Assembly (NCBI GenBank): GCA_951406725.2
Contig: OX597819.1
Span: 84,754,001 to 84,818,000, forward strand
DNA length: 64,000 nt
From: Octopus vulgaris
Lineage: Eukaryota
Direction of reading: 5' to 3'
Position numbers and translations under genes: made by a program. Below, piece by piece: positions 36,950 through 61,179 of the stretch (position 1 is its first letter; each line of letters begins with the position of its first letter). Under the pieces are notes generated by a model, which worked only from the letters and a program-made list of their open reading frames with translations, made no database searches and was not told where the DNA came from.

Positions 36950-38022
36950 ATCATCATCATCATGATTTAACATCCACTTTCCATGCTAGCATGGGTTGGA
37001 CGATTTGACTGAGGACTGGCAAACCAGATGGCTGCACCAGGCTCCAATCTGATCTGGCAGATTTTCTACAGCCGGATGCCCTTCCTAATGCCAACCACTC
37101 TGAGAGTGTAGTGGGTACTTTTACGTGCTACCGAAATGAGGGCCAGTCTGGCAGTACTGGCAACAGTCACACTCAAATGGTGTTTTTCCAGCAGCACTGG
37201 CAATGACCTCGCTCGAATGTCTTGTTCACGTACCACCGGCACAAGTGCCAGTAAGGCAACACAGGTAATGATCACGCTCAAATGGTGCTTTTTACGTACC
37301 ACTGGCATGGAAGCCAGACAGCTGCTCTGGCAGTGATCCTGCTCAGATGGAGCTGTTAGTGCTCCACTGGCACGTGTGTCAGTTATCGAATTTGGTTCAG
37401 TTTTGATTTCACTTGCTCCTACAGGTTTTCGCAAGCAGAGTTTAGTGTCCAATGAAGGAAGGTTGGCATGGGTGCCAGTTGAATTTGGTTTGATTTCGAA
37501 TTCAATTTCGATTTCACTTGCCTCAACAGGTCTTCGCAAGCAGAGTTTTGTGTCCAAAGCAAAGGTACGCATAAGTGGGCTGGCTACACCCTTGGTAAAG
37601 GCCATGGGTTATGATCTTACTTGGCTTGTCGGGTCTTCTCAAGCACAGCATATTTCCAAAGGTCTCAGTCACTAGTCATTGCCTCGGTGAGGCCTAATGG
37701 TTGAAGGTCGTGCTTCACCACCTCATCCCAGGTTTTCCTGGGTCTACCTCTTCCACTGGTTCCCTCCACCACTAGGGTGTGGCACTTTTTCACACAGCTA
37801 TCCTCATCCATTCTCGCCACATGACCATACCAGCACAATCGTTTCTCTTGCACACCACAACTGAAGCTTCTTAGGTCCAACTTTTCTCTCTAGGTACTTA
37901 CACTGTCGAGTATGTACATACATTACACATCCATTGGAGCATACTGGCTTCATTCCTTGCAAGCTTATGTATATCCTCAGCAGTCATGGCCCATGTTTCA
38001 CTGCCATGAAGCATAGCTGTTC
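36950..38022 (-). mobile_element. RTE-clade LINE, 5'-truncated, same family
   Basis: RLCWYGHVARMDEDSCVKKC...GRGRPRKTWDEVVKHDL, plus 3' UTR and (TGA)n tail seen as (CAT)n on the plus strand. Confidence 0.88.
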
Positions 38023-39401
38023 ACCAAGTAGGAAGGCAGGCAAACCACAAATCCCTTCAGGTAGATGCCCCTGCTCGATCTGTAGAAAAGGCATAGGTAG
38101 AAACGCTATAAGATGTACCCAGTGTAAGCTATGGACACATAAGAGGTGCAGCAATATCACAGGAAGGCTAACTGTGAAGATAGTTTTTGTATGTAGCAGA
38201 TACTCAGGACCAATAAACACTGAAAATGTGCAGAGAACAACCTGCCACATTCCAGGGAGAAAAACTTGAAGTAGTTGATAGCTTCTGTTATCAAGGTGAC
38301 CCAGTCAGTAGCAGGGTTGGGTGCACTGAAAGTGTAGCTGCTAGAGTAGTTCAGAGAGCTCTTACCTCTGCTGGTGACAAAAGGCCTCTAGCTCAGAGTA
38401 AAAGGTAAACTGTATTACATTTTATACGAACAGCTACATAGCAGTGAAACATGGGCTGTGACTGCTGAGGACATGAGTAAGCTTGCAAGGGATGAAGCTA
38501 GTAAGCTCCGCTGGATATGTAATGTCACTGTGCCTATTCGACAGAGTGTAAGTGCCTTGAGAGAAGAGTTGGACCTAAGAAGCATCAGATGTGGTGTGCA
38601 AGAGAGACGACTGCGCTGATATGGTCATTTGCTGAGAATGGATGTGGATAGCTGTGTGAAAAAGTGCCACACCCTAGTGGTGGAGGGAACCTGTGGAAGA
38701 GGTAGACCCAGAAAGACACATGATGAGGTGGTGAAGCACGATCTTTGATCATTAGGCCTCACCGAGGCAATCAATAGTGACTGAGACCTTTGGAAATGTG
38801 CTGTGCTTGAGAAGACCCGGCAAGCCAAGTAAGATCATAACTCGTGACCTATGCCAGGGTGTAGCCAGCCCACTTATGCGTACCTTTGCTTTGGACACAA
38901 AACTCTGCTTGCGAAGACCTTTTGAGGCAAGTAAAATCAAAATCAAATTTGATGACTGGCATCCATCGTAGTGGAGTGCTAACAGCACCATCCAAGCGTG
39001 ATCATTACTAGAGCAGCTGACAGGCTTCTATGTCAGTGGCATGTAAAAAGCAACATTCAAGTGTGATTGTTACCAGCTTTGGTTTACTGGCACTTGTGCC
39101 AGTTGTACACAAAAAAATATTTCAGCGTGCTTGTTGCCAGTGCCGCTGGACTGGCTCCTGTGCAGGTGACATATAAAAAATACAATTTGAGCATGGCTGT
39201 TGCCAGTACTACCTAACTGGCCCTCGTACTGGCGGCACGTAAAGGCACCCACTACACTCTCGGAGTGGTTGGCATTTGGAAGGGCATCCAGCTGTAGAAA
39301 CTGCCTGATCAGATTCGAGTCTGGTGGAGCCATCAGGTTCGCCAGTCCTCAGTCTAATTGTCCAACCCATGCCAGTATGGAAAGCGGACGTTAAACGATG
39401 A
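38023..39401 (+). mobile_element. RTE-clade LINE, 5'-truncated (ORF C-terminus, 3' UTR, TGA tail)
   Basis: PCSICRKGIGRNAIRCTQCKLWTHKRCS..., LEVVDSFCY, SETWAVT, RRLR*YGHLLRM, GRGRPRKT, with stops and frameshifts; ends cgttaaacgatga. Confidence 0.88.
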
Positions 39402-58943: not shown

Positions 58944-59050
58944 ATATGGAATGGCTAAATGTATCAATAATGAAGAAGCAGGAAAAGCCTTAGAGTTATA
59001 CCGTGACAAAGAACTAAATGGTCGTCGACTTGTTCTAAGGAAATTTAAAA
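58944..59050 (+). CDS. RRM protein exon D (RNP1-like, helix 2, beta 4)
   Basis: gtttag|A...A|gtaagt; 107 nt, phase 2 to 1; TYGMAKCINNEEAGKALELYRDKELNGRRLVLRKFK, a typical RRM C-terminal half. Confidence 0.82.
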
Positions 59051-60265
59051 GTAAGTTGTATGAAAATGCTTTGTTGTTGTAGTCTGTGTAATTTGTATTT
59101 GTGTGTGTTTCTCTTCCTCACATTTCCACTTCATGTACTATGAATACCTTCTAATCCCCAATCTTATCCTCTTGACCCAATGCCACTGTATCATTACTCT
59201 CTGCTTGCCCTTGATCTGTGTGTTCTACCCACATGCCTTGTCTCACTCTATTATTGCCTCTGCTAGCCCCCGACCTGGGTGTTCCACCCACATGTAACAA
59301 GAAAACTTTCCCCTCACCCTATCCCAACAAACCAATTTACATCTCTTTCTTGCATTTCCTCCTTCATTCACTATGCCTAGCTCTCACTCCCCAATCCTGT
59401 CCTCACACCCCTGTTCCTCTGTATCATTGCTATCCAGTAGCCCCTCCAACTCTATATATACCCAGGTCTTTTGCCACTTACTTGCACTCTTTAATTGCAC
59501 TCTCTTCGCAATATCCTGTCACTTATGGCATTTGAACCTCAAGGGTATGCCCTGGCACTTGCCACTATCTATATCTCTCTCTTCCTTTACTCAACCATCT
59601 TATTTATACTCTGATCCCTGTTCCTTGTAAGTATGCCCAGCATTTTGCCACCATCTCCATCCTGCAGTCTCCCACTCTCTCTCTCTCTCTCTCTCCTGCA
59701 CGTCTCTCAGGTTGGGCAACTGTGTATTTTCTTTGCGGTAGCACACCTGTTTCTGTCTTCATTCCTGATCTTTCTCTTTCTGGCGGGGTAACCTTGTACT
59801 TTCAGCAAGACACCTGTATTTGTTTCACTATAACCACTTCATCATCACCTCCTCCAATGCCTCCTCCCCTTTTTAAAAGTTTTTGTCTTGCAAGTACTTG
59901 GTGACCCTGTCAGTGCAGATGCAACTTAAAAGCACCCAGCCCATACTGTAAAGTGGTTGGTGTTCGGAAGGGCATCTAGCTGTAAAAACTTTGCCAAAAC
60001 TGACCTAGCATGTGCTTGTGCCACATAAAAAGCACTAAGTCCACTCTGATACGGGGTTGGTGTTAAGAAGGGCATCCAGCTGTAAAAATCCTGCCAAAAC
60101 AGTCACAGAAGTCTGTATCAAGGTACATGTAAGTTTTGTATGTCTGCATGTATGTGCCACATATATATATGCTAAAAAAGGCAATTAAGCCAAAACCACG
60201 AAAAAATAATTCTTAAGGCATGATGTTAATGGCACTAAAGTGAACAAAATATAAAAAATTAGTTA

Positions 60266-60339
60266 ATCACATACTCGAGTTTCGCTATTAATGACTAAGT
60301 AAATGAATTTATTTGGCATCCATGGCTCGTCAGAGAGAT
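60266..60339 (-). ncRNA. Type I hammerhead ribozyme motif, mirror copy
   Basis: Minus strand reads ATCTCT-CTGACGA-GCCA...TAGC-GAAA-C TCGA G-TA-TGTGAT. Core intact, palindromic stem III, stem I with two mismatches. Confidence 0.72.
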
Positions 60340-60575
60340 CATTAAAGAATACATGATTATGTATCTTTAATACGTACCGAAAACACATGCGCAACACAGC
60401 TCCATCTTTATACATTATGGATTCAAATTTAGTGCATGAGTGTAGTCAAATGCTGCTGGGCTATTTGACTATGCTCGTGCACTAAATTTGAATCTATAAT
60501 GTATAAAGATGGAGCTGTCTTGCGCACGCACCTGTTTTCAGTACGTATTAAAGATACATACTCATGTATTTAATG

Positions 60576-60649
60576 ATCCCACTGATGAGCTACGGATGCC
60601 AAATTAATTAATTTATTTGGCAATTAATAACGAAACTTGAGTATGGGAT
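60576..60649 (+). ncRNA. Type I hammerhead ribozyme motif (Penelope-like)
   Basis: ATCCCA-CTGATGA-GCTA..(TGCCAAAT/ATTTGGCA hairpin)..TAAC-GAAA-C TTGA G-TA-TGGGAT. Intact core, perfect 6-bp stem I, minimal stem III, GUA cleavage triplet. Confidence 0.8.
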
Positions 60650-60999
60650 TAACTAATTTTTTATTTTGTTCACTCTAGTGTCATTCATACCTTAAGAATT
60701 CTTTTTTCATGATTTGGGTTTAACTGCCATTTTAGCATGTAAGAAGTCCTGTCAAGGGTCTTTTCTCTGTGTATAAATCTTTAAACACTCCAGATGAGCA
60801 GGGGTTGTATCTAACTTTTGTTATGGATTGTTTTGATAAAATAAGTACCTGTTAAAATACTTGAGATAAAGTTATAAAGAATGATATTATGGCTGTATGT
60901 ATGTACAAGGAATTAATACTGCTTAAATCTGTGGATTAGCATTTTGTTTTTTTTCTTTTTTACATTTTCTTGACAAAAGACATTTCATTTCTGTTTTAG

Positions 61000-61179
61000 A
61001 CAAAAAAGGCAATGATGGAGATACATCAGAGGCTGAGAATGTTTCTGAAATAAGTGGAAATTCAGATTCGAGAGATGTAAACAAATTCTCCAAATCTAAA
61101 AATAGCCATTCAGCTGGTGGTAATGAGATGCCCAAGTTGGAAGATTGCAAGCATGATTCCACCAGTTCAGATCATCAAG
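61000..61179 (+). CDS. RRM protein exon E (S/D/N-rich linker)
   Basis: gttttag|AC...CAAG|gtactt; 180 nt, phase 1 to 1, stop-free; NKKGNDGDTSEAENVSEISG...SSDHQ. Confidence 0.75.

Follow-up and report, generated by a model that had tools for sequence, protein, structure and literature searches.

An intronic palindrome of Octopus vulgaris is probably an old head-to-head insertion of a hammerhead repeat without ORFs

Two kinds of mobile sequence come closest to the locus described here. Metazoan non-LTR retrozymes are presented, in the sections of the reports used here, as short, low-GC repeats devoid of ORFs, in which each unit carries one type I hammerhead with a 6-bp stem I, a 2-bp stem III and a palindromic tetraloop, and which form partial tandems and many solo copies in genomes that also contain Penelope-like elements (PLEs) (Cervera and de la Pena, 2020, PMC7229834; Li et al., 2026, 10.64898/2026.07.22.740005). 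The tandem, ORF-less organisation is given as a non-LTR retrozyme trait in these sections and in those of a third report (PMC7761336), and excerpts of a further paper state that the canonical metazoan type I hammerhead form needs a dimer (PMC4209133). For PLEs, the traits given in the excerpts of Craig et al. (2021, PMC8557442) are partial tandems, a 5'-truncated copy in inverted orientation, a one-sided tail of 30-40 bp and a bias towards microsatellites, and those in the excerpts of Arkhipova et al. (2013, PMC3846280) are abundant head-to-head inverted repeats, palindromes at the junctions and a tail on one inverted pLTR. Moreover, according to the parts used of Frangieh et al. (2024, PMC11167929), a purified PLE protein cuts AT-rich DNA on both strands and extends each of them; synthesis begins at two internal positions of the RNA, which delimit the tail, and does not require hammerhead cleavage. 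Penelope repeats are stated to have expanded in coleoids (PMC8967140, excerpt). In the retrozyme reports used here, the link between retrozymes and PLEs in animals has so far been based on co-occurrence and sequence trees.

The window analysed in this study is a 64,000-nt stretch of the Octopus vulgaris genome (contig OX597819.1, positions 84,754,001 to 84,818,000). A first-pass annotation had reported a palindrome with arms of ~280 bp, ending at 60738, within an intron of an RRM gene. The arms are real: aligned to each other, 60166-60451 and 60463-60741 share 242 identities over 290 columns (83% identical, 15 gap columns), with a score of 340 and a maximum of 32 among 300 shuffles, and the loop between them is 11 nt long. 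The intronic position also stands. The host intron (59051-60999) belongs to a plus-strand gene for P0001, a protein of 441 aa with two RRM stretches that is labelled Octopus vulgaris by its source. The right limit had to be moved, since similarity to a dispersed repeat family extends to 60790, on the right side only. The features of the locus are listed below, with reference positions counted on a natural family copy (L009:1466-1935).

58944..59050, plus strand: upstream host exon, P0001 (441 aa), end of RRM1
60158..60169, no strand: short (TA)n run at the left boundary, the usual target of the ~480-bp repeat family
60166..60451, minus strand: left arm, a 5'-truncated copy of the ~480-bp hammerhead repeat, reference positions 46-322, 3' end outward
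60266..60339, minus strand: type I hammerhead in antisense orientation relative to the host gene; complete core, 4/6 pairs in stem I, a single mismatch in stem II
60452..60462, no strand: head-to-head junction loop, 11 nt, among the 3/48 near-symmetric junctions
60453..60790, plus strand: right arm, a 5'-truncated copy, reference positions 36-373, stopping at the commonest family 3' site
60576..60649, plus strand: type I hammerhead in the sense of the pre-mRNA; complete core, 6/6 pairs in stem I, a single mismatch in stem II, predicted cleavage after A60643
60742..60790, plus strand: one-sided extension without counterpart on the left arm, beyond the coordinates first annotated
61000..61179, plus strand: downstream host exon, P0001, phase-compatible

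As the host gene lies on the plus strand, only the plus-strand hammerhead is present in the pre-mRNA. A contig from a run labelled as another organism covers the left junction (60086-60425) with zero substitutions; hence, the insertion is common to both. The runs compared with the locus were contigs dominated by paralogous repeats, and the single run presumed to be RNA covered neither the palindrome nor the exons. Immediately to the left of the palindrome, a short repeat of very high copy number occurs twice in tandem (59928-60115). The window also contains a second long inverted repeat (37496-38952), with 521-nt arms that are 88% identical and a 421-nt spacer.

The full hammerhead core that had been read on each strand is present, with C3-A9, G12-A14, A15.1-U16.1 and H17 complete in both arms. 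The plus motif reads ATCCCA / CTGATGA / GCTA..TAAC / GAAA / CTTGAG / TA / TGGGAT and the minus motif ATCTCT / CTGACGA / GCCA..TAGC / GAAA / CTCGAG / TA / TGTGAT. The lesions differ between the arms, as had been noted: stem I keeps all six pairs on the plus arm and four on the minus arm, and each stem II contains a single C.A mismatch, at positions that differ between the two. Stem III had been described as intact on one arm only. The plus arm does carry a TCGA>TTGA change, which is present in 7/60 family copies, but both stem III pairs are retained and an 8-bp dimer helix remains possible with two G.U pairs, at a computed energy for TTGA of -5.8 kcal/mol (vs -10.7). The assignment to type I hammerheads of the PLE and retrozyme kind, with a palindromic stem III, was confirmed. 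General hammerhead models did not bear the motif out. It has the catalytic core CUGANGA / GAAA / NUH in common with Rfam Hammerhead_3 (RF00008, clan CL00010), but it is a type I motif with a long stem II, and none of the Rfam hammerhead models scores above threshold: Hammerhead_3 alone gave a sub-threshold match (14.8 bits, E 4.4; gathering score 48.5), and a scan of the whole window returned no hammerhead at E<=1. Rfam miRNA matches in the window were discarded as hairpin or microsatellite noise. The plus hammerhead scores 101.5 bits against the family model R1, which was built with that copy included.

The palindrome is a single insertion of a hammerhead repeat whose family is dispersed through the genome; the unit measures ~480 bp and is devoid of ORFs. 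We searched the 2.8-Gb Octopus vulgaris genome and scored the best 40 candidates per query, out of 341 first-look candidates for the palindrome and 838 for a natural full unit; a core-plus-palindrome pattern, which spans several hammerhead families, matched the genome 171 times and a reversed control once. After alignments shorter than 35 nt and overlapping duplicates had been removed, the mapped set comprised at least 117 distinct loci, a sample biased toward query-like copies in which some loci came from a pattern containing part of the core. These loci resolve into 134 insertions, namely 55 solo, 31 tandem and 48 inverted. All 48 inverted insertions are divergent, with their 3' ends outward, and none is convergent (49 and 1, respectively, with a looser joining gap of 400 bp). 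Their 5' truncation points are unequal in 45 cases, and the window's junction is one of the three near-symmetric ones. A whole hammerhead on each strand is found at 15/117 loci. The first-pass annotation had taken the palindrome for a distinct, self-symmetrical ribozyme element; instead, its arms are symmetric because the family inserts head-to-head. That the element is non-coding was correct, the longest stop-free frame of the unit being 50 codons.

On sequence evidence, the hammerhead and retrozyme features are present at the family level. The traits listed above for non-LTR retrozymes are all shared, including a low GC content (32% in octopus). One natural direct dimer (L027) has two consecutive intact hammerheads, the feature that Li et al. 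take as 'active'; at the window locus such a pair is absent, the copies lying on opposite strands and each bearing stem lesions. Compared with retrozymes as portrayed in the sections used, the octopus unit is slightly above the quoted 150-450 bp, its tandems are partial (1-2 units) and not arrays, and its stem II is long and interrupted. Moreover, 36% of the sampled octopus insertions are head-to-head, an arrangement of which those sections gave no description for retrozymes. Among literature titles and abstract openings we found no octopus retrozyme or hammerhead family; the family may already be catalogued in Repbase, in Dfam or in supplements, such as those of PMC7229834 and PMC4209133, which may list cephalopod motifs. 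In one insertion that is both tandem and inverted (L228:4956-5546, C7 near 58297000), five-fold expansion of a 126-bp piece of the unit has given rise to a small satellite.

Sixty copies span the hammerhead and could be aligned. The hammerhead structure leaves 86.8% of cells paired, a value that none of 500 shuffles reached, and controls slid along the alignment gave 23-44%. The genomic copies showed both conservation of the core and stem covariation. Departures affect 39/775 core cells (5%) versus 604/4296 cells in other columns (14%), in a sample that is partly core-selected. Stem I pair 26-97 is C-G in 37 copies, U-A in 18, U-G in 3 and other in 1 (n=59), and another inner stem I pair is A-U in 39 and G-C in 6, although these covarying cells represent a few subfamily-level changes and not independent events. 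Since stem I covaries across subfamilies, the founder copies likely carried working hammerheads. RNAalifold predicted no consensus pairs on the 60 decayed copies. The core is fully intact in 34/60 copies, core and stems together in 16/60, and the stem III palindrome is exact in 29/60. The usually invariant G10.1-C11.1 pair (alignment columns 38 and 81) is G-C in only 19/60 copies and is replaced, by subfamily, by A.G, A.A, A.C or U.U in 33/60; these replacements are possibly functional variants.

The ends of the insertions follow a distinct pattern. Among 182 3' ends, 84 fall at reference positions 360-396 and 65 at 440-470 (149/182 in both windows), which defines two preferred sites ~85 nt apart. 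Only 2/182 lie near the cut site, ruling out that ribozyme cleavage sets the ends. Among the 48 inverted cases, 27 combine an end at each of the two sites, one insertion uses the first site twice, one the second site twice, and 19 show other combinations. A second natural reference, spanning the unit junction and read with strict windows, gave 13 mixed and 1 + 1 same-site insertions of 46, a count lowered because ~21 alignments break 20-30 nt early at the poly-A run of this reference. With this junction-spanning reference 26 ends stay at the internal site, so that the second site is not an artefact of the reference end. Flanks rich in TA, CA or TG accompany 57/110 ends at the two sites and 1/68 other ends, with a background of 10%. 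The family tail is one-sided and ~85 nt long. The left arm in the window stops at reference position 322, where few family ends lie (4/182 at 310-325); hence, this insertion does not itself display the two-site pattern.

These properties recall PLE insertions with an inverted pLTR and a tail, as documented in the sections used of PMC3846280, PMC8557442 and PMC11167929. Partial tandems, 5' truncation, a head-to-head inverted copy, a palindromic junction, a one-sided tail, (TA)n targets and ends away from the hammerhead cut are common to both. Unlike the PLEs described in those sections, the octopus repeat has no RT or GIY-YIG ORF, its tail measures ~85 nt instead of 30-40, and a complete stem I with an outer helix sets its hammerhead apart from the minimal PLE hammerhead. 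The repeat was likely copied in by a Penelope-like RT and endonuclease, and the family would behave as non-LTR retrozyme units that enter the genome with the geometry of Penelope insertions.

Our preferred explanation, to which we assign a probability of about 85%, is that the palindrome is an old, decaying head-to-head insertion of this ORF-less hammerhead repeat, likely copied by a PLE enzyme, with a sense ribozyme that is predicted to be masked. Founder copies would have given rise to tandem RNAs, whose hammerheads would cut as dimers through the ACUCGAGU palindrome. Hammerhead dimers are reportedly the subject of work by Lunse in 2017. The PLE enzyme would nick a (TA)n run, and either both DNA ends would be extended on RNA from internal sites or one cDNA would fold back on itself. 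Two truncated copies would thereby be joined at their 5' ends, in this case by chance 10 nt apart, so that each strand of the resulting near-perfect palindrome would bear a hammerhead. Priming from two ends is favoured over the fold-back of a single cDNA because 45/48 junctions lack symmetry and the ends switch between two sites. More tentatively, and at somewhat less than even odds, the octopus family may be direct genomic evidence that Penelope machinery inserts retrozyme-type repeats, priming asymmetrically at two fixed sites ~85 nt apart and never at the ribozyme cut. In this sense, the 27 mixed against two same-site insertions would fit an RT dimer acting on a single RNA, tandem or circular, which would explain the one-sided PLE tail.

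The family is not an autonomous PLE. The first-pass annotation had proposed a count of palindromic, solo and tandem copies and of any links to PLE ORFs; such copies were found, a continuous ORF was not, as no RT or GIY-YIG ORF lies within the element or is continuous with any of the 117 loci. PLE ORF fragments occur near 4/117 loci, none continuous with the repeat. GIY-YIG/RT PLEs are abundant in the genome (6136 candidates and 148 scored matches in the GIY-YIG search). A comparison with 50 loci from the 148 scored matches, made for sequence shared with GIY-YIG elements, returned one adjacent family copy, in opposite orientation (L105). This GIY-YIG fragment was rejected as a partner, given that orientation, a (TA)n run between the two and an unrelated 3' region; the family copy is 68% identical. 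A PLE ORF near L047 was also rejected, lying 1.6 kb off behind microsatellites and a different hammerhead. Twelve wider stretches (9.5 kb) around divergent subfamily copies, plus four others, yielded one GIY-YIG fragment, 3 kb away and opposite. These results bear on the strongest rival, according to which the unit is a 5'-truncated terminal repeat (pLTR or 3' region) of an autonomous PLE whose coding copies escaped sampling. In the portions of the literature used, 5' truncation affects most PLE insertions, and PLE-type hammerheads are mostly found apart from full elements; in addition, only the best 40 candidates were scored per DNA search. However, at the 12 loci inspected successive units adjoin head-to-tail, at a period of ~450-490 bp and without unique upstream sequence, and the unit offers neither a frame beyond 50 codons nor a continuous ORF at the 117 loci. 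We consider this alternative unlikely.

The two arms are sisters in a 57-copy tree (support 0.88). They have nine minority letters in common, and a loop insertion of 4 nt occurs in both but in no other row of the 60-copy alignment. They differ at 29 sites, 15 private to the left arm and 14 to the right, or ~6.5% decay each. Read from this alignment, both arms come from one template and are evenly decayed, and their complementary lesions arose by independent decay. During transcription of the host gene, the antisense arm would come first and would zip onto the emerging ribozyme. The masking in a long duplex that had been suggested is indeed predicted. The plus-strand transcript folds into a hairpin of -340.8 kcal/mol, versus -275.5 kcal/mol with the hammerhead enforced, a gap of 65 kcal/mol, in a calculation that ignores tertiary contacts, proteins and helicases. 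The predicted probability of stem I in the full plus-strand transcript is ~0, and in growing transcripts ~86% of the ribozyme bases are predicted to pair with the left arm as they appear. Folded alone, the plus copy forms stem I (z -2.1), the minus copy gives no hammerhead (z +0.7) and the intact natural copy L027 reaches z -4.1. Hence, the hairpin is predicted to trap the sense ribozyme, which would then not cleave; a dimer partner would need to be supplied by another molecule. The proposed choice between self-cleavage and masking is disfavoured because the masked state is predicted to predominate at every transcript length tested. The only likely remaining activity would be passive, namely a long imperfect duplex open to ADAR, of which it is, on general knowledge, a plausible substrate.

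A second rival holds that the hairpin has been co-opted, as an editing substrate, as a source of small RNAs against the family, or as a cleave-or-mask switch tuning the splicing of the RRM gene. The predicted fold would lend itself to this, with 257 inter-arm pairs, a 56-bp perfect helix and 171 paired adenosines; the cores are intact in both arms, and the contig labelled as another organism shares the insertion. Yet two intact cores have a chance of ~17% at 6.5% decay per site, in a family where 34/60 copies keep the core, and neither arm belongs to the 16/60 copies with core and stems intact. The even decay of the arms shows no sign of homogenisation, the same arrangement occurs at 15 family loci and masking prevails at all tested lengths, so that co-option appears distinctly improbable.

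Weakest of all, and hardly credible, is a foldback or MITE-like DNA element or a local inverted duplication after insertion: near-perfect symmetry, the 11-nt loop and a single template for both arms would suit it, but 5' truncation is unequal in 45/48 inverted copies with constant polarity, outer ends are unequal and variable, without fixed length or fixed terminal inverted repeats, solo and tandem copies together outnumber inverted ones, and no target-site duplication was found at this insertion.

As a decayed insertion with a ribozyme predicted to be silent, the single locus is of little import. The octopus family, a hammerhead repeat without ORFs, shows the PLE insertion signature in countable form. 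It constitutes a natural template set for mobilisation in trans and for two-site priming with purified PLE protein, and it supplies long intronic duplexes for studies of cephalopod editing.

Head-to-head arrangements are shared by at least two unrelated hammerhead families of this genome. At L110:90-574 (C1 near 183008400), a 485-nt, 96% palindrome bears an unrelated hammerhead family on each strand; its stem III loop is GATC and a PLE GIY-YIG fragment lies ~1 kb away. A third hammerhead family (L138:3637-5174, C15 near 5195200) forms a 560-bp tandem with a 100%-identical head-to-head copy. It has three identical hammerheads with a GTAC loop, is very young and, judging by these features, is a good candidate for an active element. 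Among PLEs proper, a 5'-truncated element with RT and GIY-YIG (L155:821-3983, C14 near 47995000) has a 766-nt, 100%-identical head-to-head inverted copy of its 3' end; the canonical hammerhead pattern was not found in the element. Another PLE family (L108/L164, C16 near 20838000), with a 781-codon open frame in 16 of the 148 scored GIY-YIG matches, was probably active recently. Finally, we observed at least four further hammerhead families (L201, L216, L222, L224 and L245-L247; L109 and L145; L158 and L200; L047), whose stem III loops are mostly palindromic (TCGA, ATAT).
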